NCBI RefSeq assembly: GCF_046119375.1
Contig: NW_027362770.1
Location: forward strand, 141,856,001-141,920,000
DNA: 64,000 bases
Direction of reading: 5' to 3'
Source: Phyllobates terribilis
Taxonomy: Eukaryota
Made by a program: the position numbers and the translations under genes. This document shows positions 22,866 through 47,099 of this stretch, piece by piece. The notes beneath the pieces were generated by a model that worked only from the letters and a program-made list of their open reading frames with translations, was not told where the DNA came from and made no database searches. Position 1 is the first letter of the stretch; every line of letters starts with the position of its first letter.

Positions 22866-23896
22866 TCAGTATTGAGTAGAAGCACTCTTTTGAGCTTGTA
22901 CAGCCATGAGTCTTCTTGGGAATGATACAAGTTTTTCACACCTGGATTTGGGGATCCTCTGCCATTCTTCCTTGCCTATCCTCTCCAGTTCCGTCAGGTT
23001 GGATGGTGAACGTTGGTGGACAGCCATATTCAGGTCTCTCCAGAGATGATCAATTGGGTTTAGGTCAGGGCTCTGGCTGGACCAGTCAAGAATGGTCACA
23101 GGGTTGTTATGAAGCCATTCCTTTTTTTTATTTTAGCTGTGTGCTTAGGGTCATTGTCTTGTTGGAAGGTGAACCTTCGGCCAAGTCTGAGGTCCAGAGC
23201 ACTCTGGAAGAGGTTTTCATCCAGGATATCTCTGTACTTGGCCGCATTCATGTTTCCTTCAATTGCAACCAGTCGTCCTGTTTCTACAGCTGAAAAACAC
23301 CCCTATAGCATGATGCTGCCACCACCATGTTTCACTGTTGGGATTGTATTGGGCAGGTGATGAGCAGTGCCTGGTTTTCTCCACAAATATGGCTTAGAAT
23401 TATCACCAAAAAGTTCTATCTTCATCTCATCAGACCAGAGAATCTTATTTCTCATAGTCTTCATGTGTTTTTGAGCAAACTCTATGTGGGCTTTCTTATG
23501 TCTTGCACTGAGGAGAGGCTTCCGTAGGGCCACTCTACCATAAAGGCCCGACTGGTGGAGGGCTGCAGTGATAGTTGACTTTGTGGAACTTTCTCCCATC
23601 TCCCTACTGCATCTCTGGAGCTCAGCCACAGTGATCTTGGGGTTTTCCTTTACCTCTCTCACCAAGGCTCTTCTCCCACGATTGCTCAGTTTGGCTGGAC
23701 GGCCAGGTATAGGAAGACTTCTGGTGGTCCCAAACTTCTTCCATTTAAGGATTATGGAGGCCACTGTGCTCTTAGAAACCTTGATTAATGCAGAAATTCT
23801 TTTGTAACCTTGGCCATATCTGTACCTTGCCACAATTCTGTCTCTGAGCTCCTTGGGCAGTTCCTTTGAGCTCATGATTCTCATTTGGTCTGTCAT
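22866..23896 (-). pseudogene. Tc1 transposase pseudogene
   Basis: Paired-like HTH (SKELPKELRDRIV...GYKRIS), GRPAKL, WSDE, VKHGGGSIML* (stop where W is expected), QQDNDPKH and WSSQSPDLNPID (catalytic E replaced by D). The frame is broken. Confidence 0.92.
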
Positions 23897-24949
23897 GCAC
23901 TATGAGCTGTGAGGTCTTATATAGACAGGTGTGTGCCTTTCCAAATCAAGTCCTATCAGTTTAATTAAACACAGCTGGACTCCAATGAAGGAGTAGAACC
24001 ATCTCAAGGAGGATCACAAGGAAATGGACAGCATGTGACTTAAATAGTGTTGAGCGATACCTTCCGATATCGGGAAATATCGGATCGGATTGGATCGGAC
24101 CGATACCCAAAGAGTATCCGATATCGCCGATTCCGATACCGGAAACCAATGCAAGTCAATGGGACAGAAATATTGGAATAAAAATAAACCCTTTCTTTCC
24201 TTGTAGGTTAATTCTACATGAAGGAAAACAACTAAGAATAATGTAGAATGTATTGGGGGAGGTGGGGGAGACAATAAAGGCATAGAGGTTTAGCCCAATC
24301 AAATGGAATTACAGGAATTAATATATTTTTTAAGACGTTCGGAGTTCCGGAAATATTGACTATGTTAAGCTTTTTTATATTTTGTCAGATATTTATGTTT
24401 CACTACTTCCATGCTCTTCACCTTCTTTTTAACTTCTCCCACACTTTCTCCTTCATCATCCTCAGCATCAGGATCTTTTTCATCAACTTCTTCTTCACCT
24501 TCTACATCTTCTTCTTCTTCACCTTCTTCCTATTATTCTTTTTTTTTTACATTCTTCATATTCTTCTTATTCAACTATTATTCTTCTTCATATTCTACTT
24601 CTTCATCATATTCTTATTTGTGACAGGTATTCCTGTAGTTGTTATCTATAAAAGTTTGAACATTACACCTTTCTTTCTGCCCGTCACAAAAGATTTACAA
24701 CAGGATTTGTCCGCGTTCAGTTTGGCCTGCAGCAGCAGGTCTTTTCCAGGGGCACCACGAGGAGGAACGGACTCACCCCCATACACTGCTTAGTCATCTT
24801 CTGCTTATAATTTAGATAATATCTTTTGCTCTGATTTTTAGTCTTATGCTTAATGTTCTTCCGCTTTTTGTTCTGCAGCTTCTTGTACTTCTGCTTCTTG
24901 GTTTTCTGTCTCTTGTTCTTCTGTATCTTGGTGGTTGTCTTCTTGTTCT

Positions 24950-28145: not shown

Positions 28146-31100
28146 TTATTCTGGAAGAGGACTGGCAAATTCATGAGAGATCCAGGCCTTGTTCATTTTG
28201 AGAAAAGTAAGCCGGTCAACGTTATCGGAGGATAGTCGCATGCGACGGTCTGTTAGTACACCACCTGTGGCACTAAAGACGCGTTCCGATAATACACTAG
28301 CAGCAGGGCAAGCTAGCACCTCCAATGCATACTGGCTAAGCTCTGGCCATGTATCCAGCTTACAGACCCAAAACTTGAAGGGAGAAGAGCCGTCTGGGAG
28401 TACACTGAGAGGGCAAGACATGTAGTCTGTCACCATCTGACGGAAACGTTGCCTCCTGCTGACTGGAGCCGTCAGTGATGGTGTAGACATTTGTGGCGGC
28501 GGGCACACAAAACTTTGCCACATTTGGGCCATACTGGTCTTGCCTTGTGCTGAGGCGCTGCTTCTGCTCCCTCTTTGTGCAGAGCTTCCTCCACTGCCTC
28601 GACGCACTGAGCTGCTTTGTAAAGCACTAGCAGCACTGCTCTCGGTTGGAATGGAGAACATGATGGAATGCACCAGTGTGTCTTGGTACTCCCGCATTTT
28701 ACTCTCCCGGTTCAAGGGTGTTATGAGGCTTTGTAAGTTGTCCCGGTAGCGAGGATCTAGGAGGGTGGACACCCAGTAATCAGCCGTGTTGAGAATGTGG
28801 GCGATGCGGCGGTCGTTTCTCAGGCACTGCAGCATGAAATCAACCATGTGCTGCAGACTGCCAACTGGCCAAGAAATGCTGTCCCCTGCTTGAGGCGCGA
28901 TCTCTGCCTGCTCTGCATCACCCCACCCTCGCTCTAGATACTGACTACTAGAGCATTGTGTACCTCCCTCCTCTGGACAGATGTCTTCCTCCTCCATTGA
29001 CTCCTCCTCATCCTCCTCACAAAGTGTCCCCTGCCTAGGCCTTTGTGAGGAACCACGTTGCGCAGACTGTAGAGAAGCAGATGGCATTTGTGACTCCTCA
29101 TCCTCCACCTCTTCCAAAACCTCCTCCCTTAGTGCTTGCAGTGTTTTTTCAAGCAGGCAGATAAGGGGGATAGTCATGCTGACTAGTGCATCATCTGCAC
29201 TCGCCATCCGCGTGGAATAATCGAAGGCACGCAAAACGTGGCAAATGTCCTTCATAGAGGCCCACTCAGTGGTGGTGAAGTGTGAACGGCGCGCACTGCG
29301 ACTTGTTTGCGCCTGCTGCAGCTGGTACTCCATTACTGCTGCCTGCTGCTCACACAACCTCTCCAACATATGTAACGTTGAATTCCACCTGGTGGGTAGG
29401 TCACATATGACGTGATGTTCCGGAAGACGTAATCGGCGCTGCAGAGCTGCAATGCGTGATCTTGCATTGCTGGAACGCCGCAAGTGAGCGCACTCTATGC
29501 GGACCTTGTGAAGCAGTGCATCAAGATCTGGATAGTCCCTCAAAAAACTCTGCACGACCAAGTTGAGCACATGTGCCAGACATGGGATGTGAATGAGGTT
29601 GCCTAGGCCCAGAGCTGCCACCAGATTTCGGCCATTGTCACACACTACCATGCCTGGCTGGAGATTCGCTGGCACAAACCACACGTCGCTCTGCTGCTTG
29701 ATGGCATTCCAGAGCTCCTGCGCTGTGTGGCTTCGATTCCCCAAAGAAATTAATTTTAATACGGCCTGTTGACGTTTGGCCACGGCTGTGCTCATATCGG
29801 TCATCATAACAGGTAACCGTTCACGGGTTGATGTGGAGGTAGACCGTGACGGCTCCTGCAGCGCTGATTCAGAGGAACTGGAGTATGAGGAGGAGTCAAT
29901 GTGTACAGACTGGATTCCTGCAATCCTTGGAGTTGGCAGAACACGTACAGCGCCACTCTCAAGATCTGTACCCGGCTCCACAACATTTACCCAATGGGCA
30001 GTGAGGGAAAGGTATCGTCCCTGTCCATGCTTACTGGTCCACGCATCGGTGGTCAGGTGGACCTTGCTGCTGATGGCGTTTTGTAGCGCATGTTTAATTT
30101 TTCCCTCCACATGCTGCTGCAGGGCAGGGACAGCTTGCCTGCTGAAATAAAAGTGGCTGAGCACGTTGTATTGTGGGACTGCCAATGCCATAAAGTTACG
30201 GAAGGTGTCAGTCTCCACCAGCCTGAATGATAGCATTTCAAGGGCCAGTAGTTTAGCAATGCCAGCATTCAGAGCCTGCGCTCGGGGGTGGTTTGCCGAG
30301 TATGGGCGCCTTTTCTCCCATGCCTGTGCTAATGATGGCTGTAGACTGGCCTGGGAGTGTGAGGATGACAGGGAAAGTGGTGCTGTGGGTGGAATTACAC
30401 TGTGTCTCTGTACAACAGTGCCAGAGATTCTTCCATGGCGATCCTGTGAGGAAGCCGAACCAGCTGTGTGTGAGCTGGAGGAAGAGGCTACAACACGAGC
30501 TGAAGAGGTGGTAGGTGGCACTGTAGGTTGGCCTAGGTCTTCAGTGTATTTTTGTAACTCCACCATGTGCTTGGTCCGCACATGTTTCCACATATTTGTG
30601 GTATTGAGGTTGCTGACACTTTTCCCTCTTTTCACCTTCTGATTACACAGCTTGCATTTGACAAAGCAAATGTCATCTGCAACTGTGTCAAAAAAGGACC
30701 AGGCACTGCAAGTCTTGGGAGCGCCCGCTTTGGATTTTGGAAGAGCCATGCTCCTAATGGGTGCCGAAGTGGAGGCTACAGGCAACCAAGTCTGCCCCCT
30801 CCCTCTCACTCCTTTTTGGGCCGTTCGGGGAATCTCTTCCTCAGAGCTGCTCCCACCACCTTCCTGTCCCTCACGCCATGATGGGTCAAGGACCTCATCA
30901 TCTACACCACCCTCTTCAAACAACTGCTTCTCCTGGGTGGTCTCGACAGCACAGTACGCACCAGAAAGTGGCACCTGAGTCTCATCATCAGATGCGTACT
31001 GAGGTGTGCTGCTGACCATAGGCACTGGCCCACCCGCCTCTTCAGATTCAGAGAGACAAAACGGTTGTGCATCACTGCATACTACCTCTTCTTCTTCAAA

Positions 31101-31541
31101 TTCTCGAATTCTGCTTGGCTGGCCCCCTCTTTCCAAGCAAAGAGATTCAGAGAACAGAAGTAGAGATGGCTCCTGTCCAGGGCTCTCTGACTGCCTGGGC
31201 AATTTGACAGGTGGTGAAGAGACAGATGGGTGCTCTTCAGTGCTCAGGACCTGAGAGGATCTGGAACTAATTGAAGTCGATGCGTTAGCTGCCATCCATC
31301 CGACAACGGCTTCAATTTGGTCCTCCCGCAGCAGTGGGGTACGGCTAGCTCCTACAAAGCTGCGCATAAAGGACTGTTCCCTGGTAAAACTGGGGGATGC
31401 TGAGTCACTGGTGCCCGCAGCAGGCACAGAATCCCCACGTCCTCTCCCTGCAGGCACAGAATCCTCACGTCCTCTCCCTGCAGAAACTCCACGCCCACGA
31501 CCACGACCACGACCACATGCCTTACTCCCTGCCTTCTTCAT
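28146..31541 (-). CDS. hAT transposase, 1131 aa (BED zinc finger, DDE RNase H fold, C-terminal dimerisation domain; ZBED1/4/6-like)
   Basis: BED motif AWSFF...CKLC...MWKHVRTKH; catalytic motifs LTTDAWTS, VCDNGRNL, CLAHVLNL (CxxH), TRWNSTLHML and ACPAASVLSERVFS. No stops or frameshifts. Confidence 0.95.
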   Translation of the reverse strand: MKKAGSKACGRGRGRGRGVSAGRGREDSVPAGRGRGDSVPAAGTSDSASPSFTREQSFMRSFVGASRTPLLREDQIEAVVGWMAANASTSISSRSSQVLSTEEHPSVSSPPVKLPRQSESPGQEPSLLLFSESLCLERGGQPSRIREFEEEEVVCSDAQPFCLSESEEAGGPVPMVSSTPQYASDDETQVPLSGAYCAVETTQEKQLFEEGGVDDEVLDPSWREGQEGGGSSSEEEIPRTAQKGVRGRGQTWLPVASTSAPIRSMALPKSKAGAPKTCSAWSFFDTVADDICFVKCKLCNQKVKRGKSVSNLNTTNMWKHVRTKHMVELQKYTEDLGQPTVPPTTSSARVVASSSSSHTAGSASSQDRHGRISGTVVQRHSVIPPTAPLSLSSSHSQASLQPSLAQAWEKRRPYSANHPRAQALNAGIAKLLALEMLSFRLVETDTFRNFMALAVPQYNVLSHFYFSRQAVPALQQHVEGKIKHALQNAISSKVHLTTDAWTSKHGQGRYLSLTAHWVNVVEPGTDLESGAVRVLPTPRIAGIQSVHIDSSSYSSSSESALQEPSRSTSTSTRERLPVMMTDMSTAVAKRQQAVLKLISLGNRSHTAQELWNAIKQQSDVWFVPANLQPGMVVCDNGRNLVAALGLGNLIHIPCLAHVLNLVVQSFLRDYPDLDALLHKVRIECAHLRRSSNARSRIAALQRRLRLPEHHVICDLPTRWNSTLHMLERLCEQQAAVMEYQLQQAQTSRSARRSHFTTTEWASMKDICHVLRAFDYSTRMASADDALVSMTIPLICLLEKTLQALREEVLEEVEDEESQMPSASLQSAQRGSSQRPRQGTLCEEDEEESMEEEDICPEEGGTQCSSSQYLERGWGDAEQAEIAPQAGDSISWPVGSLQHMVDFMLQCLRNDRRIAHILNTADYWVSTLLDPRYRDNLQSLITPLNRESKMREYQDTLVHSIMFSIPTESSAASALQSSSVRRGSGGSSAQRGSRSSASAQGKTSMAQMWQSFVCPPPQMSTPSLTAPVSRRQRFRQMVTDYMSCPLSVLPDGSSPFKFWVCKLDTWPELSQYALEVLACPAASVLSERVFSATGGVLTDRRMRLSSDNVDRLTFLKMNKAWISHEFASPLPE

Positions 31542-31894
31542 CTTGGTAGACTGATAAAGATAGGCAGAAAAGTACTAAGGGCTTAGTGTGCTTATTCCTG
31601 AACAGCTGCTAACAGGTATAAGAAACACTAATTTTATAAAGTGTGGACTAGACTTTAATATGAGCTAATGTGGCCTACACAACTGTAAAGTGGAGTGTTT
31701 GGTGAACTTTATTTAGGTTTTTTTTACACAAAAAGACACTGGATGTGCCCAAAGATGTAATACCGATAGTATCACAAACTTTTTGTAGCTATTACAATGT
31801 AGGCAGGTAACCTACAATGCAATAGATGAGGCTACAAAAAATAGGCTAATACTAATCTGGCTGGGGCTGCAGGGCCCAATGCTGCAGAAAGGCT

Positions 31895-32420: not shown

Positions 32421-33465
32421 GCGATTTATAAAGTAGCTTGGGTAAAGCAGAATAGACCAAATAGGTAGCTAAAACTGTCCCTCAGAACAACAGCGTCCTA
32501 TCCCTAACTGAATTAACAGCAGAGTGAGCTCAAAATGGCGGCGGCGGCTTTTATAGTGCATCATGACATCATTTCAGCAGCCAATCACAGCCATGCCATT
32601 AGTTAACATGCCTACATGCCTAACAGGATGTGCCCACACTTCTTAGGATCCTCAATGGCTGAATAAAATGAAAATGGCTCATTGCATTATGGGAACTTCC
32701 GATTCCGGTATACGATATTGTAAAAGTATCGGAATGCTCAACACTAGACTTAAATATGAGTGTCTGAGCAAAGGGTCTGAATACTTATGACCATGAGATA
32801 TTTCAGTTTTTCTTTTTTAATAAATTTGCAAAAATTTCTACATTTCTGTTTTCTTCAGTCAAGATGGGGTGCAGAGTGTACTTTAATGAGAAAAAAATGA
32901 ACTTTTTAGAATTTACCAAATGGCTGCAATGAAACAAAGAGTGAAAAATTTACAATATATCGATAATACCACAAACATTGAAAAAAATTATATGGTCATG
33001 GTGTTGTGGTATTATTACAACATAGAGTTTTACCACCATCCTGTTACTGAACAAAACTCTCAATACCAAGACAGAAAAACCCAGCAATAAGATAATTTTC
33101 TAAGTAATACTTATATAGTTACCAAAAAAACAAATATTATCCCCATACAATTGTAGCACCCTGAGGATTCGGCTGCTACAGGGGTATTGCACCTCAACCC
33201 AGAGGTGTGATATTCCACTCCCGGGTAAGGAAGGAGTGTGGAACTGAGCTCGGTAGGCTGCATGCACTACACACATCCCATTTCCGAGGAGCAGACCGAC
33301 GGTACTCCCACTTAGAAATGTGCAGGTACGACCGAGTCTGTTCCTGGCTGGAGTGGGAGGGGGGGTGGTACATCCCAAGTAGTGTAGGGGCAGATAGGGG
33401 GAGCAGCCTGGGTAAAGATAGGAGCTCATTGGGTGCTGGTCACCTGAGCTCACACATAGAGGGTG

Positions 33466-33472
33466 TATATAA
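33466..33472 (+). promoter_or_regulatory. LTR TATA box (TATATAA), with an inverted CCAAT about 38 bp upstream
   Basis: TATATAAGGTGGGCACC is conserved in the LTRs of elements 1, 2, 3 and the solo LTR. Confidence 0.6.
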
Positions 33473-33969
33473 GGTGGGCACCAACTAAGAACAGGGTCAG
33501 TTGCAGAGAGAAAGTCAGCGAGCGGAGGAGAAGAGAGACCCAGAGTGAGAGAGGAGAGAGAGAGACCCAGAGGGGGGAAACAGAAGAAAAGGACTCCAAG
33601 AACCCAAATTAAATCCCCGGGTGAAGAGTCGGCACAGGGTACCGGAACCCAAGCTGGTGGGGGGCAAAAACACACCCCAGCCAGAGACCGGAGACCGTGG
33701 GCAGCGTTTGCCACGGTCACCCACCACATCCACCACGAAGGCATACCACGTGGAGGGTCAGGGAACCCGAGGCCAAGGGTCTCCCAACAGAAGGCCCGAG
33801 GGAGCTGGACCTGGGTGGATCAATAGTGGGGACGGCCAGAGAACGGACAGAAGGAGAGCTCAGGGTCACGCTCCGGACTTATTTGGGGGTTGGCTGGATC
33901 CAGAACCTGGTGGACGCAGCACGGCTCGGGAGGTCACTCGAAGCTGGAGTGACCAGAACATCAGCAGTG

Positions 33970-33975
33970 AGTAAA
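33970..33975 (+). promoter_or_regulatory. Candidate LTR polyadenylation signal AGTAAA
   Basis: AGTAAA is at the equivalent position in elements 1 and 3, the solo LTR and the 494 LTR. The assignment is inferred from position only. Confidence 0.45.
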
Positions 33976-34316
33976 CATCCTAAACTGCATAACCCGACTC
34001 TGTCTCTGATTGCCGTCTACACTGCATCACCACAACTCCCATCCTCTGCACCTGATCCCCCTGAGGCTATACCCCTCCCGTTGGGGGTTATCCTATCAAG
34101 CTGCACCAACACCACCAGCCTCAGCGGACCCTGCTGCAGCGGCGGCCACAGTGACCGCAACACAACGGGTGGCGTAGTCGACATTAAGAACTTAATAACA
34201 TCTGTAGGACTGCCACATACAACTGAGTTTGACACCCTGGGCACGGACCGGGTCACAGCCACTCGGAAGACTACAACCCCCATCTGATCCGGCTCCGGAT
34301 ATTCCCCCTAAAGAAT

Positions 34317-36359
34317 ATGGCCCAGGGGGCGCGTCAACTTTGGCGTAGTCGGCAGGATTACGTGCCCGCAACACCCGGGTACTGCGTGCCTGAAGGAAAG
34401 TGCAAGTTTACCTCAAGAAGAAGTCTCCTGCCGGTTCCGGAGGGTCCCCGCCATCGGACCCCATCACCAGTCGATTCCAGCCGGTTGTCCGCCATTAACA
34501 GCGTTTTCCCGCCATCTGCAGAGTTTCCCGCCACTGGGAAGCGATTCCCGCCATTTCCAAAGGTTTCCCGCCTTGGAAGAGCGGACGCCATTATGGGCGT
34601 GCCAGAGGGTGGCGAGAGGCCACCTCCCATCGTGGGCCAGGACCGAAAATGGCGCCAAAAGTGGAAACCGCCCCCACCAACAGAGACTGTGATGCTAGAG
34701 GTGTCTGTCAGCGTGAAAGAACCGCCCCTGGAGCTGACAGTCACCAAGTGGCCCCGGGACCGCCCTCGAAGTGGGAGGAGACGAAAAAAAAGAACGAAGA
34801 TGGGTGCCGCCTGGAGCAGTCTGGAGCGAGCGCACCCGGAGGCAAGAAGCCTGGAGAAGAGTAGCAGAGAAGCTCACCCGGAGATGGCGAGAGAGCAGAG
34901 CAGCACCGGCCCGCTGGCCAGGAGCCTGCTGGAAGAAGAGCAGAGCAGCACCGACCCGTTGGTCAGGAGCCTGCTGGAAACCACGACCCCACTAGGCCTA
35001 GTGGAGGTCCTTGCACAGCTCCCCCGAGACCGGGAGTGTGCACAGACCGCTCTGGAGGGCCTCGCACGGAGGATGGCCCGGGTACAGCGAGAGACATTGG
35101 CGGAGTGGAGCCGAGAGATGGCCCAGCAAACCAAGACCCGGAGCACGCCAGCCAAGATGAGGAGACAGACCGCCTCTGAGGATGGCGCGGGAGGACCCAA
35201 GGCCGGAGACGGCGCCGAGAAGGGAGCCGAACGCATGGAGGCAGGTAAAGGGGACGTCTATACCCCAAACCGGGACACCGCTTACCTGCCCCAGCTCCCC
35301 GTCGCAGAGCCCGAAAGTCCCCCTGCTGTGCCCGAAAACGCCATGTCACCGACGCAGACTAGGCCCCAACCGGAAGCCGCCGCCGCGACCCCTGTGACGC
35401 CATGCGCACCGACCCCGAGCGTGGCAAAACAGGAAGTAACACCAGCCTGGTCGCAGGGCCTAGAATTCCCGGGCGTCGCATCACCAACAGCGCCCCCTAC
35501 CTCCGCGGAGCCTCCGGCCTAGCCGCAAGGCCAGGTAGCCCAGGGCGCCGCCGTCCTAACGGTGCCCTTCACCTTCCAGGTGCCCCAGGCCTGGCCGCAA
35601 GGCCTGGGCAACCCGGGCGCCACCACCACCGCGCCCGCACCCGTAAAACCAAGGGTGCCGCGTCTGGGAGAGGACTTGTTTGCCCAGCACACGTGGCCGG
35701 ACGGGCAGCCTTTCATCTGGCCCCAGAAATATTATGAACTGGAGCACCAGAGGAGAGTTGGGGCCATGTGTGCACCCCTGATTCCGGCTCCGAAGCCCGT
35801 GATAAGGATCTCGTCCCCGCTTGAAGAGACCCAATTTGAGTGGGACCCCACCGGAGAAGACCTAATGGGGTTCACTCAAGAAACCAGGGCAGCTGCAGCG
35901 GAGCGTGCTGAGTGCTGCCGACAGCAGCTCGAGGAGTTTGCGAGGGAGCGGAGAGAGAGGCGGGTCCGGGAACAACAGGCCCAAATAAGGAGCGCCGAGC
36001 AGAAGAGCCGAACCAGGAGGGACCCCCGTGCAGCGCACAGTCCCCGCACCACCGGGACTGTAATTAAGTTCAACATGCAGCATGGGTGGGGCTTCATCAG
36101 AGACCACAACACCCCCGGCAACGTCTTTGTCACGCGCAGAGATGTGGAGTCCCATCTGCCGGAGGGGCACAGAGGTCGTGACCTTTATATCGGGGACGAG
36201 GTCACCTTTACCCGGCACAAGTGTGCCAAAGGACCTTACGCCCTCCATGTGCATCGCCTGACAGAGGAGGAGCTGCGATGTGAGGAGGAAGAGCAAGAGG
36301 ATCCGGACGGGTCTGAAGCTGAGATCCCCAAAGAAGGAGCAGGAGGAAGACGTTGTTGA
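34317..36359 (+). pseudogene. Single ~680-codon ORF with a C-terminal cold-shock domain (36051-36260), interrupted by one TGG>TAG stop at 35520-35522
   Basis: ORFs 34317-35522 and 35562-36359 are in the same frame, and element 3 has TGG at the homologous codon. CSD: TGTVIKFN..HGWGFI (RNP1)...NVFVT (RNP2)...GDEVTF..KGPYALHV. The start codon is uncertain (alternative ATG of MGVPE near 34593). Confidence 0.85.
34341..34358 (+). promoter_or_regulatory. Primer-binding site complementary to the 3' 18 nt of tRNA-Ser
   Basis: TGGCGTAGTCGGCAGGAT is the reverse complement of the vertebrate tRNA-Ser(AGA/TGA class) 3' end AUCCUGCCGACUACGCCA. It lies 4 nt after the LTR end. Confidence 0.92.
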
Positions 36360-37988
36360 GTACAGCGGAGCAGGTGCTGTAAATAGTTACCCGATCGGGG
36401 TATAAAGAAACTGTTACTGCAAATATAGTCCCCGTTGGGACCAGCTGAGTGAACTGTTCACCCGTTTACCCTTAATCCCACAGGCTGAGGACTGTGAGCA
36501 GCCATTCCCTTTCCCTCCTTAACTGGCCGAGGACTGAGAGCGGCCATATCCTTGTATATAGTTGCGCGTCCTAAAGCGCCCCCTACCGGTTTTATAGGAA
36601 AACCATTTTTCTAGAAAGACTGTCGCACTTTACCCGGTCACACGTTGCACAGTGACCGGAGGAGGAGCCAGAGGCGACGAGAAAGTTTTATATATATATA
36701 ATGTTTTATATGTTTTATATGTTTATGAAAAAAAAAAAAATTTGTATGTTTGGATGTTTTTGTCTTACAGCCCGAGGACGTGCTGTGATTTACCAGGGGG
36801 GAATGTAGCACCCTGAGGATTCGGCTGCTACAGGGGTATTGCACCTCAACCCAGAGGTGTGATATTCCACTCCCGGGTAAGGAAGGAGTGTGGAACTGAG
36901 CTCGGTAGGCTGCATGCACTACACACATCCCATTTCCGAGGAGCAGACCGACGGTACTCCCACTTAGAAATGTGCAGGTACGACCGAGTCTGTTCCTGGC
37001 TGGAGTGGGAGGGGGGGTGGTACATCCCAAGTAGTGTAGGGGCAGATAGGGGGAGCAGCCTGGGTAAAGATAGGAGCTCATTGGGTGCTGGTCACCTGAG
37101 CTCACACATAGAGGGTGTATATAAGGTGGGCACCAACTAAGAACAGGGTCAGTTGCAGAGAGAAAGTCAGCGAGCGGAGGAGAAGAGAGACCCAGAGTGA
37201 GAGAGGAGAGAGAGAGACCCAGAGGGGGGAAACAGAAGAAAAGGACTCCAAGAACCCAAATTAAATCCCCGGGTGAAGAGTCGGCACAGGGTACCGGAAC
37301 CCAAGCTGGTGGGGGGCAAAAACACACCCCAGCCAGAGACCGGAGACCGTGGGCAGCGTTTGCCACGGTCACCCACCACATCCACCACGAAGGCATACCA
37401 CGTGGAGGGTCAGGGAACCCGAGGCCAAGGGTCTCCCAACAGAAGGCCCGAGGGAGCTGGACCTGGGTGGATCAATAGTGGGGACGGCCAGAGAACGGAC
37501 AGAAGGAGAGCTCAGGGTCACGCTCCGGACTTATTTGGGGGTTGGCTGGATCCAGAACCTGGTGGACGCAGCACGGCTCGGGAGGTCACTCGAAGCTGGA
37601 GTGACCAGAACATCAGCAGTGAGTAAACATCCTAAACTGCATAACCCGACTCTGTCTCTGATTGCCGTCTACACTGCATCACCACAACTCCCATCCTCTG
37701 CACCTGATCCCCCTGAGGCTATACCCCTCCCGTTGGGGGTTATCCTATCAAGCTGCACCAACACCACCAGCCTCAGCGGACCCTGCTGCAGCGGCGGCCA
37801 CAGTGACCGCAACACAACGGGTGGCGTAGTCGACATTAAGAACTTAATAACATCTGTAGGACTGCCACATACAACTGAGTTTGACACCCTGGGCACGGAC
37901 CGGGTCACAGCCACTCGGAAGACTACAACCCCCATCTGATCCGGCTCCGGATATTCCCCCTAAAGAATATGGCCCAGGGGGCGCGTCA

Positions 37989-38295
37989 CAATTACTATAC
38001 AAAGCACACTATACTAAGACCAATAAAGCAATAGTACAATACAATAGTACAATAGTACAAGAAAAAATGTCACCACACGATGACCAGATATTACTACCAC
38101 ATAGTGTCTGAGTATAACCATCATCCTGCTACTGAGCAAAACTCATAATACCAAGACCAATATACTGATAATATCACAAAAAATAGATAAATAATACCGC
38201 AACACCATGACCATATATTACTATCACATAGAGTTTTACCACCAGCTTGTTACAGAACAAAACTCTCAATATCAAGACCAATATATCAATGATAC
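37989..38295. repeat. Degenerate ~120-bp-period host repeat (also 32952-33151 and 40764-40870) into which elements 1 and 2 inserted
   Basis: The motifs AATACCGCAACACCATGACCATATATTAC, CATAGAGTTTTACCACC and CAAAACTCTCAATA.CAAGAC recur in all three segments. Confidence 0.65.
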
Positions 38296-40763
38296 TGACG
38301 CGCCCCCTGGGCTGTGTGTGGGGGAATACCCGGAGCCAGGTCTCTGTGTAATGCTAGGGATTGTAGTCTCCGTGGCGGTGACCCGGTCCCGTGGCTCAGG
38401 GTGGTCAAACCAGTGGCGGATCTGTTTATTTGGTTTCTAATGTTTAAATGTCCGACTACGCCACCCGTGGATTGCGGTCACTGAGAACCGCCGCTGCGGG
38501 GCAGACCGCTGAGGCTGATGTTGTGTGCGCAGCAGAGGGTAGTATAACTCCCCACGGGAGTAGTATAGCCTCAGGGCAGTGAGTGCAGATGGTGGGGGTG
38601 ATGGTGCGCGGGAGCAACAGTAATGACTCAGAGTCCAGTGATGCAGTCCAGGGTCTTTACTCACAGTTTTACACTCCAAGCCACTTCTGCAGGTAATGGC
38701 TGCCCACGTTGTACTGTGCTCACCAGGTGAGGGGCTCGGCCAACTCCCAGGTACCTTTGGAATGCTTTTCAGGACCCCTTTCGTGTGTCCTTTCTCTGGC
38801 CCGTCGTACCCCACAATTGACCACGTTTCTGTCCAGCTGCCTCGGGCCTTGGCGGGCAAACGTATGTTCCGTTTCCCTGGGCCCTATATGGTGCCTTTCT
38901 AACGGGTGTAGTGAGGGGCCGTAACACGTGCAATGCCGCGGCCTCCGGTTACTAGCTGAGGGTAGTTGCTCTCCTCCACTAGATGAGGGATCCGGTTCCC
39001 TATTCTTGGTCTGACCCCCCTACTCTGGTAGCGGCGGGCGTGCGGTGGCGACTGGCCGGTCTGCACCCCTGGGGTCCCTTCACTCCACTCCTGGAGCCTC
39101 CTCCGTTCCTCTCCTCTCTGACTGAACTCAGCAGCTCTTCTCTTCTCTAGGTTCAGGCCTTGAGACTTGGCCTCCCTGCGGAGCAGAGCCCATACAGAGC
39201 CCCTGCTCCCAGTCGTCTTCTCTCTCTTTTCTCTCTCTTCTCCCCGACTCCAAGATGGTGCCCACCTTATATACTCCCCTTTCCAGTGCACCCTGGATCT
39301 ACTCTCCCCACCCACACACTACCGGGTTTCCCCTTTCTAGGTGTTTCCTCCCCCCACTCCAGCCAGGGACAGGGGCAGTTGTGCTCACTCTTGGGAGCAT
39401 TGTCGCCCTGCCCCCCGGAAATGTGGTGTAGTGCATGTGGGTGTTAGGGTCCTGAGCCATACTCCATCCTTACCTGGAAGTGAGATATCACACCTCTGGG
39501 TGAGATGCAATACCTCTGTAGCGACCGAACCCTCGGGGCGCTACATTCCCCCCTGGTAAATCACAGCACGTCCACGGGCTGGAACAGAGTAAAAGACAAT
39601 TGATTTCAAGACATGCAGAATTAAATATTTTTTTTTTTTTTTTTTAACGTTACTTGTCATAAAACTTTTCTCTTTTTATCAACATATGCAACATTCCTTT
39701 CATTTACGGTTACTCTTTCCTTGATATAACTTTCAATATACACATATAAAACATTCTTTTAAGTAGAAAATATGAAACATTATCAGCAACATTTCAACGG
39801 CGAAGTCTCTTTAACAGGCCACAGTGCTTGCCGCGACCAGGTGTCCATGTCACCCAACAAGGTGCAATTTTACTAAGTGCAAACTTTCAAACACCTTCAG
39901 GTATCTATTGAGGTAGGAGTTTACAAAGCCAATAGTGGGCACTTTAAGAAGTGCAACTATTTACAAGGGTTGGCTGCTCCCAGTCCTCAGCCGGATAGTT
40001 CACGGACCCTTTTCGGGTAACTTTAGCAAATAAACGGACAACAATCCCGAACCGGGTGAACTTTTTATAATCCCCAAACGGGCATAACTTGAAACTCTTT
40101 TTCTTCTACCCTGACAGGTAACTATATACAGTTCGTGCTGCTGCTCTCTAGAAGCGGTGTCCCCCTTGTGGATGTTCCTGCTCATCAAATTCTTCAGACC
40201 CGTCCGGGTCCTCAATGTAGCAGGATTCAGGGTAGCGCTGTTCTTCTACCCGCTGAACGTTGAGGGCGTACCACCCCCGCAGGCCTCGGTGTCGGGTGTA
40301 TGACACCTGATCCCCAGGGAACATATCCCGTTTCGGGTGACCCTCGGGCAGGCGACTCTCCACATCCCTCCGGTTGACAAAGATGTCTGTGTTCGTCGTC
40401 GGGTCCCGAATTAACCCCCACCCCTTCTCCTGGTGGAATCTGACCACAATCCCCGTGACTTTAGGACCGCGTGCAGCCTGGGGGTCTCGGCGGGCCGGGG
40501 TCTTTTCCTCCGCGCTCCGGGCCTGTAGCTGCTCCTGTTTTTGGCGCCGCGCCTGCCTCTCCTTTTCCAGCTGCGCCATCTCCCGGCGGCAGAATTCTTG
40601 CCTGCGGGCTGCCTTCGCCCGCGTCTCTTGCGAGAACCCCATCAGGTCCTCCCCGGTCTGATCCCACTCAATTTGGACCTCTTCATCCGGGAGCTGGAGG
40701 ATGGTGATTTGCTCTGGGTAAGATGCAATACCTCTGTAGCGACTGAACCCTCGGGGCGCTACA
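38296..40763 (-). mobile_element. 5'-deleted CSD LTR element of a second subfamily (element 2)
   Basis: Intact 1250-bp 3' LTR at 38296-39545 with PPT at 39546-39554. The internal region 39546-40711 is fused to only the first ~52 bp of the 5' LTR (40712-40763). Flanks are ATAC/TTAC. Confidence 0.9.
40148..40711 (-). pseudogene. C-terminal remnant of the element ORF with an intact cold-shock domain (~40247-40456)
   Basis: EWDQTGEDLMGF...VTGIVVRFHQEKGWGLIRD..DIFVNRRDVES..GDQVSY..GWYALNV aligns without gaps to element 1. Confidence 0.88.
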
Positions 40764-41306
40764 TTACCACAAACAATGGATAAATAATACCGCAACACCA
40801 TGACCATATATTACGACCAGATAGTGACCGAATTATACCATCATATTGAATATTAGTAAAAATCACAGCTATAACACTAATATTCCCCCCATACCGTATA
40901 GTGGAAGGTATCAGTATATACAATACTGATAACTCCGATACCCACTGGTTACATCTCCAATTGAAGTAATTAATTTCGGTTTTCTTCTGCACCAGCACAG
41001 ACTGCTTCCAGCCATGATTCATCTCGGCAAAATGTAACACACAGACATCTATGGGTGATCGCTTCTAGACCACCCCTTCCCCTATTTCCCCACTCCTACA
41101 GTAACAGTATCTCCAAAAATAAAATACAGTACACCATAGATGCTCACCTATGTGTCCCTATACAGTAGTAATGCTCATGCCCCCATTGTGCCCAAATACA
41201 GTAGAATTGCCCCCACAGTCGTGACACCCAAACAGTAGCATTGTCCACCTGTTATGCCTCCCATACTGAGTTCGATAATAGGCATTTTTGAAAAATAGGA
41301 TTTTAA

Positions 41307-41673: not shown

Positions 41674-43473
41674 TTAAACCAGACAGTTTCTTAAAGCAAA
41701 TTGATATGTCTCAAACCCAAAGTCTTTTTACCAATTTCCAAATTCTTATTTGCCTTACGTTGCAATCCCTGGATGTTCTTCCAACCATTTTTTTCTTGTC
41801 TATATCCAGCATCTGTCATCTATATCCATTTAGAAATTAATATATTCAGTGTTCTCTATATAAAGCGTACGATTCATTTGCTGGATCCGTTATTCTAAAG
41901 CACAGGGAATATTATTTTATACAAAAGCCTGAGACCAATTTTTGCAGGCGTTGTGGGTATCATGAACCAGGACAAATTCAGCACAAAATGACACTTTTAT
42001 TGATTATCACAATCTCAGAATTATTTACAGGCTTTTTTAAAATTTAGTAGAACACCTCTGGCTGTTATAACCTGCTGCCAACGTAATGCATAGCCAGACA
42101 CCATCTCACATCATTTTCTCTAGGCTAGATTGTGTATATTGCGGCCACCACTTGGCTTTCTTGCCTCCAACTTGGTCAAAAAATTACAAAAATGTAAAAA
42201 TTTAACTTTGTCTAAATTTTAAGATTGAACCCATTGTTTTCTTATTATATGTGTAAATTCACATATGGCAAGTGTAGCACCCTGAGGACTCGGCTGCTAC
42301 AGGGGTATTACACCTCAAGCCAGAGGTGTGGTATTCCACTCCCGGGTAAGGATGGAGTGTGGAACTGAGCTAGTAGGCTGCATGCACTACACACATCCCA
42401 TTTCCGGGGGACAGATCAACGGTACTCCCACCAGTATATGTGCAGGTACGACAGCGTCTGTCCCTGGCTGGAGTGGGAGGGGGGTGGAACATCCCAGTAG
42501 TGTAGGGGCAGATAGGGGGAGTAGTCTGGGTAAAGATAGGAGCACATTGGGTGCTGGTCACCTGAGCTCACACATAGAGGGAGTATATAAGGTGGGCACC
42601 ATCTTAGAACAGGGTCAGTCAGTGAGAGTTTAACCTGAGGAGCAGAGCAGAGGAGTTCAGTCAGGAGGGCTGACAGGGAGCTGTGGCTCCGGCTGGGCCC
42701 AGCTCCAGAACAGAGCCTGCTGAGAGAGAGAGAGGAGTCAGAAGGACCCAGAGAGGAAACAAGAAGGAACCCCAAGATCCCAGAATAAGGACAGAAGGGT
42801 GAGGGGTTGGCGAACAAGGGTACCGGAACCCAAGCTGGCGGAGGCCAAAGCAAACCTTAGCCAGGAACCGGAGGTCGTGGGCAGGATCTGCCACGACCCT
42901 CACCAAATCCACCAGAAAGGCACACCAAGCATAGGGTCAGGGAGCCCAGAGGAGGCTTGACCAACAAGAGACCCGAGGGAGCCGGACATAAGTGGATCCC
43001 TGGTGGGAACGGCCAGTAGAAAGGGAAAGTCAGAAAGGAGCTCAGGACCACGCTCCAGAATTGCCTGGGGGTTGGCCGAGTCCAGGACCTGGTGAACGCA
43101 GCACGGCTCGGGTGGTCACTCAAGGCCAGAGTGACCAAAAGAACATCAGTAAGTAAAAACCCTGAACTGCACCTCCCGTCTCAGAGTCTCCTTTCTACAC
43201 CACAACAACCACCATCCTCCACGTCTGACCCCCTGAGGTTATACCCCTCCCGTTGGGGGTTATACTACCACAGCTGCACACACACCACCAGCCTCAGCGG
43301 ACCATCCTGCAGCGGCGGCCTTTTGACCGCAAATCAACGGGTGGCGTAGTCGACACTAAGAACATCTGCAAGGACTGCCGCACACTGAGTTTGACACCCT
43401 GGGCACGGACCGGGTCACAGCCACTCGGAGACTACAACCCCCATCTGATCCGGCTCCGGGTATCCCTAACAAC

Positions 43474-44985
43474 ATGGCCCAGGGGGCGCGTCAACTTTGG
43501 CGTAGTCGGCAGGATCACGTGCCCGCAACAACCGGGTACTGCGTGCCTGAAGAAAAGTTCACATTTACCTCAAAAAGAAGTCTCCCGCCAATTCCAGAGG
43601 GTCCCCGCCATCGGACGCCATCTCGGATCAGTTCCCGCCATTTGCCCGTCATCTGCAGTCTTTTCCCGCCATCCACAGAGTTTCCCGCCACTGGGAGAAG
43701 ATTCCCACCATTTCAGAAGATTTCCCGCCTTGGCAGAGCGGACGCCATTATGGGCGTGCCAGAGGATGGCAAGAGGCCACCTCCCATCGTGGGCCAGGAT
43801 CGGAAATGGCGCCAAAAGTGGAAACCGCCCCCACCAGCAGAGACTGTGATGATTGATATGTCCATCAGCGTGAAGGAACTGCCCCTGGAACTGGCAATCA
43901 CAAAGTTGCCCCAGGACCACCCCCAATGTGGGCGGAGACGGAACAAAAGAGCGAAGATGGGAGCAGCCTGGGGGAGTCTGGAGAGAGCGCACCCGGAGAT
44001 GAGGAGTCTGGAGAGGAGTCCAGAGAGAACGCACCCGGAGATGGAGGGAGAGTCAGGCAGCACCGACCCTGTGGTCAGGAGCCTGTTGCAAGCCGCCACT
44101 CCGGAGGGCCTGCTGGAGATCCTGGCACAGCTCCCCTGAGACCGGGAGCGTGCACAGACCGCGCTGGAGGGCCTCGCACGAAGGATGGCCCAGGTGCAGC
44201 AGGAAATGCTGGCGGAGTGGACCCGAGAGATGGCCCTGCAGGCTGGAGCCTGCCAGCGAAGCATGCCACCCGCAGCGAGGAGCAAGTCCACCTCTGAGGA
44301 CGGCGAAGGAGGGACGACGGCCGGAGACGACGCCTCGGAGGGAGCCGAAGAGATGAAGGCAGGTAATGGGGACGACAATATCCCGTGCCCAGAAGCCGTA
44401 AACCTGCCCCAGCTCCCCGTCGCAGAGCCCGAAGCCCCACTCACTGTTCCAGTAGCCGCTGCGTCATCGCTCCAAGCTAGGCCTCAAGCGGCCGGAGCCG
44501 CGGCCACGCCCCCTGTGACGTCACGCGCCTCGATCCAGAGCACGGCCAAGCAGGAGACGCCACCGGCCTGGTCGCAAGGCCGAGTGCCCCCGGGCGCCGC
44601 AGTACCAACAGCGCCCTCTACCTCCACTGAGCCACCGGCCTGGTCACTGGGCCAAGTAACCCCGGGCGCCGCCGTCTTCACGGTGCCCTTTACATTCAGG
44701 GTGCCCCAAGCCTGGTCGCAAGGCCTGGTGAACCCGGGCGCCGCCACCAAAACAGCGCCCTCAACGTCCACAGCGCCACACCTGGGTGAAGATCTATTTG
44801 CCCAGCACACATGCCCGGATGGGCAGCCCTTTGTGTGGCCGCCGGAGTTCCACCATCCCCGACTCCGGAAAGAAAGACCTCTGGATGAGCCCCTGATCCC
44901 GGCTCCGGCGCCCGTCAAGATGACCCCGCTCTCGTTAGAGGAGGCGCAGTTTGAGTGGGACCCCCCAGGAGGACGTCGCCACTGA
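43474..44985 (+). pseudogene. Homologue of the element-1 ORF with one CGA>TGA stop (44137-44139) and an in-frame loss of the coiled-coil and CSD segment
   Basis: ORFs 43474-44139 and 44185-44985 share a frame and align to element 1. The protein ends QFEWDPPGGRRH*, joining element-1 QFEWDP directly to GGRRC*. Confidence 0.85.
43498..43515 (+). promoter_or_regulatory. tRNA-Ser primer-binding site
   Basis: TGGCGTAGTCGGCAGGAT, identical to the PBS of element 1. Confidence 0.92.
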
Positions 44986-47099
44986 TGTACAGTAGGAGCA
45001 CTGTATATAGTTACCCGTCGGGGTATGAGAACTGTTATAAGTACTGCTGCTAGTTAAAATATAGTCCCCGTTGGGACCAGTGAACTGTTACAGTGTGTCC
45101 CATCTCCCCACAGGCTGAGGACTGTGAGCAGCCATCCCTTTTTCCCCACTGGCCCGAGGACTGAGAGCGGCCATACCTTCCCCTTGTATATAGTTGCGCT
45201 TCTTAAAGTGCCCCCTACCGGTTTTATAAGAAACTGTTGTTTTTACTACAAGAGACTGTTGCACTTTACCCGGTCACAAGTTGCACCGTGGCCGGAGGAA
45301 CAAGAATGTTTACTATGAAAAGTTTTATATGAAAAGTTTTATGCTGATGATATATATATAGTGTTTTATATGTTTATGATGTTTTTGAAAAAAAAAATTG
45401 TATGTTTGTGGATGTTTTTATTCTTTTACAGCCCGAGGACGTGCTGTGATTTGCCAGGGGGGAATGTAGCACCCTGAGGACTCGGCTGCTACAGGGGTAT
45501 TACACCTCAAGCCAGAGGTGTGGTATTCCACTCCCGGGTAAGGATGGAGTGTGGAACTGAGCTAGTAGGCTGCATGCACTACATACATCCCATTTCCGGG
45601 GGACAGATCAACGGTACTCCCACCAGTATATGTGCAGGTACGACAGCGTCTGTCCCTGGCTGGAGTGGGAGGGGGGTGGAACATCCCAGTAGTGTAGGGG
45701 CAGATAGGGGGAGTAGTCTGGGTAAAGATAGGAGCACATTGGGTGCTGGTCACCTGAGCTCACACATAGAGGGAGTATATAAGGTGGGCACCATCTTAGA
45801 ACAGGGTCAGTCAGTGAGAGTTTAACCTGAGGAGCAGAGCAGAGGAGTTCAGTCAGGAGGGCTGACAGGGAGCTGTGGCTCCGGCTGGGCCCAGCTCCAG
45901 AACAGAGCCTGCTGAGAGAGAGAGAGGAGTCAGAAGGACCCAGAGAGGAAACAAGAAGGAACCCCAAGATCCCAGAATAAGGACAGAAGGGTGAGGGGTT
46001 GGCGAACAAGGGTACCGGAACCCAAGCTGGCGGAGGCCAAAGCAAACCTTAGCCAGGAACCGGAGGTCGTGGGCAGGATCTGCCACGACCCTCACCAAAT
46101 CCACCAGAAAGGCACACCAAGCATAGGGTCAGGGAGCCCAGAGGAGGCTTGACCAACAAGAGACCCGAGGGAGCCGGACATAAGTGGATCCCTGGTGGGA
46201 ACGGCCAGTAGAAAGGGAAAGTCAGAAAGGAGCTCAGGACCACGCTCCAGAATTGCCTGGGGGTTGGCCGAGTCCAGGACCTGGTGAACGCAGCACGGCT
46301 CGGGTGGTCACTCAAGGCCAGAGTGACCAAAAGAACATCAGTAAGTAAAAACCCTGAACTGCACCTCCCGTCTCAGAGTCTCCTTTCTACACCACAACAA
46401 CCACCATCCTCCACGTCTGACCCCCTGAGGCTATACCCCTCCCGTTGGGGGTTATACTACCACAGCTGCACACACACCACCAGCCTCAGCGGACCATCCT
46501 GCAGCGGCGGCCTTTTGACCGCAAATCAACGGGTGGCGTAGTCGACACTAAGAACATCTGCAAGGACTGCCGCACACTGAGTTTGACACCCTGGGCACGG
46601 ACCGGGTCACAGCCACTCGGAGACTACAACCCCCATCTGATCCGGCTCCGGGTATCCCTAACAACATGGCCCAGGGGGCGCGTCACAAGCATTATCGAAA
46701 AGTGCCGCTGAAGATATGCCCCCGGCGTATACAACTAAATGCCTACGTAGTGTTTTATGTGATTTCTGGTTGGATCTCCATGTAATAAAATTGTATATGA
46801 TTACCAGAAAAAAAATGTACAAGAATTTGAGTACATTTTTTTTTTACAAAAAAAGAATGAAAAAAAAAACCAAAACATATATAAATGCTCAGTTTCAGGG
46901 TTGGTTGGAGGGAAAGAAAAAGGGGATATCTACATTCTATTTTGTTCATTCATTTTTCATATTTTTTTATTAATATAAAAAAAATGTTAATGAAAAAATA
47001 TCCAAAAAACTATTTGATATAATGATGAAAAAAAGCTGTAAGGGCACAAATTTTGAATTGCAAAGCATAAGATAATTTAATAATGAACTTGGAATTATC

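Follow-up and report, generated by a model that had tools for sequence, protein, structure and literature searches.

Non-autonomous LTR elements are usually either non-coding or Gag-retaining. Similar to the element analyzed in this study, Xenopus 1A11, Xretpos and lambda-olt 2-1 are described as pol-less frog LTR elements that possess one long ORF and occur in multiple copies; these Xenopus elements are expressed in embryos (PMC4585706). The ORF of 1A11 is similar in size to that of our element, and its 71-kDa protein is described as Gag-like (PMC4585706). The zebrafish BHIKHARI families Bik-1 and Bik-2 are likewise described as non-autonomous LTR families with one protein-coding gene retained (PMC12067270). 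In addition, 46 bird ERVs are reported to carry a captured cold-shock domain (CSD; PF00313) at varied positions inside retroviruses, with near-host E-values of 1e-14 to 1e-26 among 30 of 45 rows of the published table, and the authors suggest that the capture was convergent and possibly adaptive (PMC12287698). The parts of that paper drawn on here report neither a selection test nor helper dependence (PMC12287698). An earlier note on the present DNA named no LTR family with a CSD as its main cargo. This claim of novelty needs a qualifier, since capture of a CSD by LTR retroelements was already published with these ERVs, in which, however, the CSD is a passenger and not the sole cargo.

The window analyzed, a 64,000-nucleotide stretch of Phyllobates terribilis DNA, contains a member of a family of ~30,000 copies. 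This family is best explained as a satellite of a Ty3/Gypsy lineage, with the cis-signals of its helpers, no gag or pol and one protein whose charged helix and CSD are under strong purifying selection.

Structure of the element and its Ty3/Gypsy helpers

The element was 4,837 bp long (33152..37988; all features are on the + strand). Its 5' LTR (33152..34336, 1185 bp) and 3' LTR (36804..37988) had TG...CA ends and were identical at 1185/1185 positions, and CAAT was duplicated at 33148..33151 and 37989..37992. Within the 5' LTR, a TATA-like box (33466-33472) is the putative promoter and AGTAAA (33970-33975) the putative poly(A) signal. The primer-binding site (PBS; 34341-34358) was an 18-mer complementary to the 3' end of tRNA-Ser, which occurred 2 times in the window versus 0.01 expected. 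A human tRNA-Ser template oligo is listed as starting with the same 18-mer (PMC3299991). The polypurine tract AGGGGGGAA (36795..36803) adjoined the 3' LTR and was the same as that of the helpers. All 20 sister copies fetched were full length, of which 18 had a perfect 4-bp duplication.

Of the first 30 PBS sites, 14 belonged to young Ty3/Gypsy gag-pol elements, the helpers. Their LTR pairs were 98.2-99.9% identical (12 measured), and they encoded a PNMA/Retrotrans_gag Gag with CCHC and a Pol of the order PR-RT-RH-IN (helper L139). This autonomous layout of gag plus pol was absent from our element. The satellite and the helpers had in common the U5 end, primer site, leader, purine tract and 4-bp duplication. 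The block comprising the U5 end, PBS and first ~40 nt of the leader (34321..34400) was shared by 14/14 helpers at 67-72 of 80 bases and is likely an att, priming or packaging signal. Thus, the element combines an LTR pair, PBS, polypurine tract and target-site duplication with the lack of its own RT, RNase H and integrase and with an autonomous partner that shares its cis-signals, as is characteristic of non-autonomous LTR elements. The earlier note had read the equal LTRs, CAAT duplication, tRNA-Ser PBS and polypurine tract from this DNA, and each of them was found. It had also proposed a non-autonomous family mobilised by Ty3/Gypsy elements and a search for autonomous elements with the same ends and PBS; that search returned the 14 helpers and, with them, the shared cis-signals directly.

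The possibility that autonomous elements carry the CSD as an additional gene was also considered. A CSD motif lay 3.6 kb downstream of only 1 of 100 RT motifs, and this single case was a nested insertion that had brought an LTR and PBS of its own. At three loci (L207, L167 and L170), the N-terminus of helper Gag was joined with the CSD, of which the 3' half remained, at differing junctions. These chimeras indicate recombination between helper and satellite, as template switching would produce if their RNAs were packaged together.

The genome contained 28,682 CSD motifs (control, 13) and 36,672 RT motifs, so that helper and satellite were about equally abundant, and both were young. The family has most likely spread by borrowing the machinery of a related retrotransposon. 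Approximately 28,700 copies of ~4.8 kb amount to ~140 Mb, which is >1% of the 10.6-Gb assembly with solo LTRs excluded. Thus, the family bears on genome gigantism in frogs. It also contaminates protein annotation: its CSD was present in database proteins named uncharacterised or 'Y-box-binding protein 2-A-like', or fused to R3HCC1. Four contig sets over 33700-37340 spanned all of it including U3, had random flanks and no usable joints, and appear to be genomic; they were left out of the evidence on expression.

The cold-shock protein and selection on it

The single long frame (34233..36359) has 680 codons counted from its first ATG (34317). As this ATG falls within the LTR and no purifying selection was seen over the first 92 codons, the ATG at 34593 is the likely start. 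The window copy has a premature in-frame TAG (35520-35522) and is therefore unlikely to make the CSD protein, whereas the frame was open in the majority of sister copies. Pfam searches with both halves of the window frame identified the CSD as the sole match and no gag or pol family, and the open sister frame likewise matched the CSD alone, with no Gag or CCHC. These results agree with the earlier description of one ~680-codon frame without RT, RNase H, integrase, protease or CCHC.

Toward the N-terminus, a conserved amphipathic helical module (34989..35126) had L, L and W residues that were invariant in 18 aligned copies spanning both primer lineages, and it matched neither Gag nor Pfam families. 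In its model, a helix of 37 residues was accompanied by two short ones. A weak match to TNFR1 (E 0.009) raised the possibility of a death domain, but the model contained no six-helix bundle. A Gag origin of the ORF was likewise rejected, as both conserved modules, aligned to helper Gag with hhalign, gave a probability of 0.2% and no signal. The C-terminal portion comprised a long charged helix (35877..36017; 47% D/E/K/R), the CSD (36048..36257) with RNP1 GWGFI, an RNP2-like xVFVT and a loop of YBX length, and an acidic tail (36258..36356) whose short tip is basic and aromatic.

The CSD of the window frame scored 33.4 bits against PF00313 (cut-off 27, E 4e-8), and those of two relatives 33.9 and 34.2 bits. 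The AlphaFold2 model possessed a 45-residue helix and a five-strand barrel, with pLDDT about 90 over strands 1-3. The best Foldseek matches were Csp, YBX and CARHSP1 domains; against Csp, the TM-scores by target were 0.8-0.9 and the rmsd 1.4-2.3 Å. Among solved structures, profile scores were highest for YBX (47-49 bits, best for YBX1 and YBX2, the latter being FRGY2), followed by CspA (44 bits), and Lin28 gave no match at E<=0.01. The loop after RNP2 aligned with that of YBX at one gap. The earlier note had placed a CSD with a Y-box-type loop at 36051-36260, and the PF00313 score, predicted OB fold and loop length bear out both points.

The identity to YBX was 31-32% over 71 residues, and nothing outside the CSD matched. 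Y-box proteins consist of a CSD and a Y-box C-terminal domain. Different from these proteins, the element protein has neither a near-identical CSD nor that C-terminal domain, and its CSD is flanked by the charged helix and acidic tail instead. The family CSD retained the RNP1 and RNP2 phenylalanines, whereas the tryptophan of KWF and the histidine of RNP2 were replaced. Since these two residues stack RNA in YBX1, the specificity of the family CSD must differ from that of YBX. In the CSD tree, deep branches lacked support and CSDE1 stood apart as a starred clade of its own; the tree contained no intact YBX or Lin28 row because the search for host YBX, whose query was a decayed YBX-like relic, retrieved only the query. 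The profile scores, though not the tree, favour a Y-box origin of the CSD. Wider searches returned little: scores <0.9 or no match in the ESM Atlas, 0, 2 and 4 matches in word-indexed protein searches, which are insensitive, and 2 and 3 weak generic CSD matches in viral and metagenome contigs.

To measure selection on the charged helix and CSD, 30 loci were sampled with no positional bias; 9 of them dropped out because the frame was broken or contained a stop, and 1 because it was too short. The comparison covered 123-132 codons and left out those of the motif. Between subfamilies, dN/dS was 0.05-0.12 in 18 of 20 usable pairs (Fisher p<=1e-8), all of which used one common reference and were thus not independent. 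Of the other two pairs, one was saturated and one had no amino-acid change. The dS values reached 1.4, and shifted-frame controls gave dN/dS of 0.8-6.7 where computable. The helix and CSD are therefore not passive cargo, and the earlier note's proviso that all copies might be decayed with neutral dN/dS does not hold. The ~30-35% identity to YBX also implies a long divergence without frame loss. A comparison of private with shared polymorphism gave no signal either way (p 0.74) among 21 young copies, which were picked by similarity and in which 'private' does not mean post-insertion. Strong selection on an enzymatically dispensable protein is best explained by a benefit that returns to the encoding RNA.

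3' UTR stem-loops and copies without the CSD

Stem-loop 1 (36483..36503) has a 5-bp stem and an 11-nt purine-rich loop, and stem-loop 2 (36525..36545) has the same loop on a compensated stem. Stem-loop 3 (36765..36788) is a variant with a GAGGAC core just 5' of the purine tract and is preceded by a pyrimidine tract and AG, which were conserved among copies. Double-sided changes occurred in 11 cells of the stem covariation, 0 of 500 shuffles scored as high and the score peaked in register. GAGGAC-type motifs numbered 2-5 per copy in all 22 copies with a readable 3' end (28 examined). The loop also contains GGACU, an m6A-type motif. An Rfam search with the stem-loop region gave one chance-level match (21 bits vs 45). 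Of 61 RT motifs, 3 had the stem-loop ~2.74 kb downstream, and in L114 it directly followed the end of pol. Its presence in some autonomous elements without the CSD weakens the idea of an operator exclusive to the satellite; the stem-loop is thus older than the CSD, and its reader may be Gag or a host factor.

Of the 16 non-autonomous copies located within the first 4 Mb of contig C1, 4 lacked the CSD. The stem-loop was retained in 24/24 CSD-deleted copies. Five deletions examined had five different junctions. The one junction counted was found in 28 copies versus the 28,682 CSD motifs. Moreover, one CSD-less copy was young, with an LTR identity of 1219/1221. Because such copies are a sizeable minority that includes a young one, the action of the protein in cis is not strict. 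The recurrence of deletions without takeover makes the protein look advantageous but not essential. The stem-loops, CSD-less derivatives and family size were absent from the earlier note.

Role of the protein and relation to known systems

The explanation that we put first, with about as much confidence as doubt, is that the element is a satellite dependent on Gypsy helpers, and that its protein binds the RNA of the satellite and aids this RNA in competing for helper particles. Helper Gag-Pol would package, reverse-transcribe and integrate the satellite RNA. The protein would act preferentially on the RNA encoding it, and the CSD may coat this RNA, perhaps starting from the stem-loops repeated in the 3' UTR. 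The coated RNA, stabilised or withdrawn from translation, might then compete better for helper particles. The protein would raise the success rate without being essential, which would be why CSD-deleted copies arise repeatedly and spread a little without taking over. LINE-1 ORF1p, which has a helical region and an RNA-binding domain (RRM) and acts in cis on its own RNA, is a functional analogy only: it has an RRM fold and belongs to an autonomous non-LTR element, in contrast to a CSD in a non-autonomous LTR element. Nucleocapsid-like packaging, germline storage and anti-silencing, the roles offered by the earlier note, are likewise hypothetical.

Somewhat unlikely is a Rev/Rex-like or translation-level autoregulator, which would bind the 3' UTR stem-loops and control export, stability or timing of the element RNA without a packaging role. 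The covarying repeated stem-loops, the 2-5 GAGGAC-type motifs per readable copy and the conserved pyrimidine tract and AG all agree with it, as do the post-transcriptional functions known for CSD proteins and summarised for the bird ERVs (PMC12287698), and it accounts for cis-biased selection too; the stem-loops of some autonomous elements without a CSD, however, do not agree with it. An anti-silencing or host-modulating factor acting in trans, in competition with YBX, Lin28 or piRNA-pathway RNPs, would help satellite and helper together and may underlie a Gypsy burst. The youth and similar abundance of both partners, the mobilisation of copies without the CSD and the high Gypsy expression reported in poison-frog ova (PMC6278860) fit such a factor, which we nevertheless consider unlikely: a purely shared benefit should be eroded by shorter cheaters, yet deletions recur while the counted junction has stayed at only 28 copies, and selection is strong (dN/dS about 0.1).

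Co-option by the host, with the frame kept by host-level selection, has precedents in Bik-1 and Bik-2, described as non-autonomous gag-only families needed for development (PMC12067270), and in the ventralising activity attributed to Xretpos (PMC4585706). It is very improbable here, because selection was seen between dispersed mobile subfamilies whereas single copies decay (the module was broken in 9 of the 30 sampled), which suggests selection on transposition rather than on fixed loci. Passive carriage of a host fragment would resemble the passenger CSDs at varied positions in bird ERVs (PMC12287698) and would agree with the mobility of copies without the CSD. It is refuted in practice by dN/dS of 0.05-0.12 at dS up to 1.4, by the retained fold and by the long divergence from YBX without loss of the frame.

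A non-Gag, host-type RNA-binding domain at dN/dS ~0.1 means that such a parasite can evolve an accessory gene of its own, and it makes a long-standing question testable, namely how the RNAs of non-autonomous elements compete for packaging with those of their helpers. The system is tractable, with a small domain that is soluble by prediction, a 21-nt candidate RNA site and natural deletion variants as in-genome controls.

No other family in the literature searched combined dependence on Gypsy elements with a selected CSD as its only cargo. Different from 1A11, Xretpos and lambda-olt 2-1, for which tens to hundreds of copies are described (PMC4585706), the present family has ~30,000. By their descriptions, 1A11 and Xretpos are also set apart by Gag: our element shows no Gag homology and has the CSD as its nucleic-acid-binding domain, and the Gag-like ORF with capsid or CCHC that defines the Gag-only class (1A11, Xretpos and Bik) was not found in it by Pfam or hhalign. 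Bik-1 and Bik-2 are described as ERV-derived and encode Gag (PMC12067270), whereas the element probably depends on Ty3/Gypsy helpers and encodes a non-Gag CSD protein. Compared with the CSDs described in bird ERVs, that of the element has a diverged sequence and a fixed position, is under strong selection and is the only domain that could be recognised. The family may possibly, and we say so tentatively, be a counterpart of phage satellites. Its gag-pol would have been replaced by a host-derived cold-shock protein, a candidate adaptor that would recognise its own RNA via amplified 3' UTR stem-loops and steer it into helper particles, and that would have been kept in frogs for tens of millions of years, letting the parasite equal its helper in copy number.

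The window element and its cold-shock domain

The LTR retroelement at 33152–37988 has LTRs that start with TG and end with CA and are identical at 1185/1185 positions, and CAAT occurs at both flanks, confirming the earlier note's description of identical-looking 1185-bp LTRs and a CAAT target-site duplication. Its primer-binding site (PBS; 34341–34358), found 2 times in the window where 0.01 was expected, matches the complement of the 3′ end of tRNA-Ser (PMC3299991), also as described. A single in-frame TAG (35520–35522) interrupts the long frame (34233–36359). Because the first ATG of the frame lies inside the LTR, is missing from some subfamilies and opens a stretch without selection, the ATG at 34593 appears the likelier start. 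A Pfam search of the frame returned the cold-shock domain (CSD, PF00313) alone, at 33.4 bits against a cut-off of 27; the absence of any gag or pol family agrees with the claim of no gag-pol.

The structure predicted from an alignment of 16 natural copies comprised a 45-residue helix and a five-strand barrel, and the structural neighbours of this predicted fold were Csp, YBX, CARHSP1, UNR and Lin28 domains. In a profile search against solved sequences, the top eight matches were YBX1/YBX2 (47–49 bits), followed by CspA (44 bits); Lin28 was absent from the 37 matches. A CSD tree built without intact YBX or Lin28 placed the element domains apart from CSDE1.

Other CSD sequences were also identified in the genome. 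Locus L071 carries a decayed, single-copy, intronless YBX-like CSD relic (1492–1713, −). Besides spliced-gene exons, loci L051–L056 (contig C1, ~734.44 Mb) and L057–L058 contain tandem intronless CSD-gene copies, which by their sequence we take to be CSDE1/UNR-like. The frame at L061/L111 (contig C4, ~791.52 Mb) is far more divergent, with 32% identity to the family and no recognisable primer site, and its loop sequence is closer to P0065 and P0048 (Bufo and Logan proteins).

Within the element, each LTR begins with a 29-nt stretch (33152–33180, 36804–36832) that folds as a hairpin with a GAGGA-containing loop, which is kept in two relatives. A GTGAGT overlapping AGTAAA in the LTR (33968–33975) is a possible splice donor, and a conserved pyrimidine tract with AG at 36745–36770, just 5′ of the third stem-loop, a possible acceptor. 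Elsewhere in the window are an open 1142-codon hAT transposase frame with a BED finger and dimerisation domain (28146–31574, −) and a Tc1/Sleeping Beauty-type transposase fragment (23303–23899, −).

Copy number, selection and loss of the domain

The CSD-element family is real, very large and young. When the 158 C-terminal residues were searched against the 10.57-Gb assembly, 43,917 preliminary candidates came up; of these, 150 were scored, each at 99–100% identity, with about 132 (a visual count) in open frames of at least 650 codons. Twenty of these copies were fetched, with long frames favoured. All were full length (4,821–4,945 bp) with LTR pairs 0–7 substitutions apart, 18 had perfect 4-bp duplications and 19 carried the CSD within a frame 680 codons long or longer. 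A 10-codon degenerate CSD motif matched 28,682 times (reversed control, 13), and of 30 loci with this motif, taken purely in order of position from the start of C1, 15 were open across all 500 upstream codons examined. Identities between subfamilies over the C-terminal module (charged helix plus CSD) ranged from 93% down to ~50%. A second lineage has a different primer site, presumably for another tRNA-Ser, with 8,117 sites genome-wide; among the first 30, six matched element-protein modules and most others Gag or Pol. Related proteins on record from Phyllobates (81% identity), Ranitomeya, Anomaloglossus and Bufo probably derive from such elements, and they suggest a frog as the host. Gene models P0113, P0114 and P0115 join the element helix and CSD to R3HCC1, to a Harbinger-type transposase or to a MADF domain, which may reflect either annotation chimeras or exonisation.

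The window also holds an older relative (38296–40766, −) with a deleted 5′ part and a 57-bp LTR stub, whose CSD is intact (Pfam 33.9 bits) and which has one stem-loop (39972–39992), as well as a solo LTR (54134–55343, −) and an LTR 3′ fragment (1228–1519, +) of related families, both at ~75% identity.

dN/dS was estimated by pairwise Nei-Gojobori comparison with one open copy, so that pairs share this reference and are non-independent. Helix and CSD each gave 0.00–0.13 in six nearer-subfamily pairs (L118, L120, L122, L123, L126, L128), and the CSD 0.16–0.44 in four distant pairs (L113, L117, L130, L111); shifted-frame controls gave 0.8–6.7 where computable. The values were 0.66–1.73 for the first 92 codons, 0.5–1.9 for the proline/alanine-rich middle and 0.24–0.55 for residues 166–290. 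Since this set had been picked by Pfam score, the analysis was repeated on the 30 C1 loci taken by position, with motif codons excluded, nine being dropped for breaks and one for length. dN/dS was 0.05–0.12 in 18 of the 20 usable pairs (p ≤ 1e-8), one of the other two being saturated and one without amino-acid change; the domain is thus not a neutral, passively carried host fragment. In some pairs, synonymous distance was several-fold greater in the module than upstream (L123, 0.86 versus 0.06–0.21), suggesting that modules have been exchanged between subfamilies.

A second, young family copy in the window (42273–46685, +), with LTRs 1219/1221 identical and a CAAG duplication, is without helix and CSD. 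Its deletion junction was counted 28 times genome-wide, on many contigs. Outside the junction, the 20 copies fetched differ by ~2–18%, apart from one with a poor alignment, so that it either arose more than once or was transferred between backgrounds. Among the first 30 occurrences of the window element's own PBS, the 16 non-autonomous copies had the CSD in 11, lacked it in four and had it cut by an insertion in one. No two of the five CSD deletions seen share a junction, and the module lies between copies of a 9-nt direct repeat. CSD deletions thus recur and can be mobilised, and are rare in the sole junction counted. The CSD is therefore not absolutely needed.

Gypsy helpers and 3′ stem-loops

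The primer site of the window element occurs 69,769 times in the genome (control, 0). Of the first 30 sites, 14 were in 7.4–8.1-kb elements with RT (hereafter helpers) and 16 in the CSD family (the satellite). One helper examined had PNMA/Retrotrans_gag and CCHC in Gag, then protease, RT, RNase H and integrase in order, which assigns it to Ty3/Gypsy. Helper LTR pairs were 98.2–99.9% identical (12 measured). All 14 helpers share 67–72 of 80 bases with the window element at the U5 end/PBS/leader, as well as its purine tract. These shared cis-signals bear out the proposal of a non-autonomous, Ty3/Gypsy-mobilised family, in which mobilisation itself is inferred. The RT motif of these lineages matched 36,672 times, and the first 100 primer sites led to the RT motif in 46 cases, the CSD motif in 30, neither in 24 and both in none. 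The CSD as an extra 3′ gene of autonomous elements was rejected: the CSD motif was there in 1 of 100 RT motifs, as a nested insertion. Three loci (L207, L167, L170) are chimeras that begin as a helper Gag and continue into the second half of the CSD, each with its own fusion point, as would be expected from template switching between RNAs packaged together.

Of 28 CSD copies examined, 22 could be read at the 3′ end, and every one of these had 2–5 GAGGAC-type motifs in its 3′ UTR. Most of the motifs form a stem of 5 bp with a purine-rich loop of 11 nt. Among 23 variants, double-sided change was found at two stem pairs, in 11 cells; double-sided change and covariation score were as high in 0 of 500 shuffles, pair-count measures being unexceptional, and the in-register stem-loop scored above every slid alternative, both in cells paired and in covariation. 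The pattern matched 63,588 times in the genome (control, 0), in none of 14 main-lineage helpers, and was kept in 24 of 24 CSD-deleted copies. It was also found ~2.74 kb downstream of 3 of 61 RT motifs and, at L114, directly after a pol end, which counts against a satellite-exclusive operator role. Given these few occurrences, the stem-loop seems to have come from a minor Gypsy lineage and to have been amplified once in the satellite.

Possible role of the CSD protein and comparison with known elements

The grounds shown in this study are the structure, the copy number, a helper with shared signals, purifying selection and a covarying RNA element. Helper Gag-Pol would mobilise the satellite, and the CSD protein, as a putative RNA binder biased to act in cis, would improve survival of its RNA or entry into helper particles. 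We give this role about an even chance; the case for its cis bias is the population-genetic argument that a shared good would erode through shorter deletion copies. That the protein instead regulates export or translation of the element RNA is considered unlikely, and that it acts in trans against host silencing slightly more so. Host YB-1 assists HIV both in RNA metabolism and in the production of virions (PMC6040738); a private CSD in an LTR element is plausible by this analogy, rather than proven.

The earlier note knew of no LTR family with a CSD as its main cargo. So far this holds for Gypsy-dependent families, none with a CSD being found among the matches listed in full-text searches of mainly open-access papers; one may yet be filed uncommented in Repbase or Dfam, in a subscription paper or in a bioRxiv supplement. 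CSD capture as such has been published for 46 bird ERVs (PMC12287698), there as a passenger in retroviruses rather than as sole cargo. The family is a non-autonomous LTR retroelement with unexpected, strongly selected cargo. Frog LTR elements that lack pol and hold a single ORF include 1A11 and Xretpos (PMC4585706), and Bik elements are gag-only (PMC12067270); the proteins of all three are described as Gag-like. In the protein of the window element, by contrast, no Gag signal was found.
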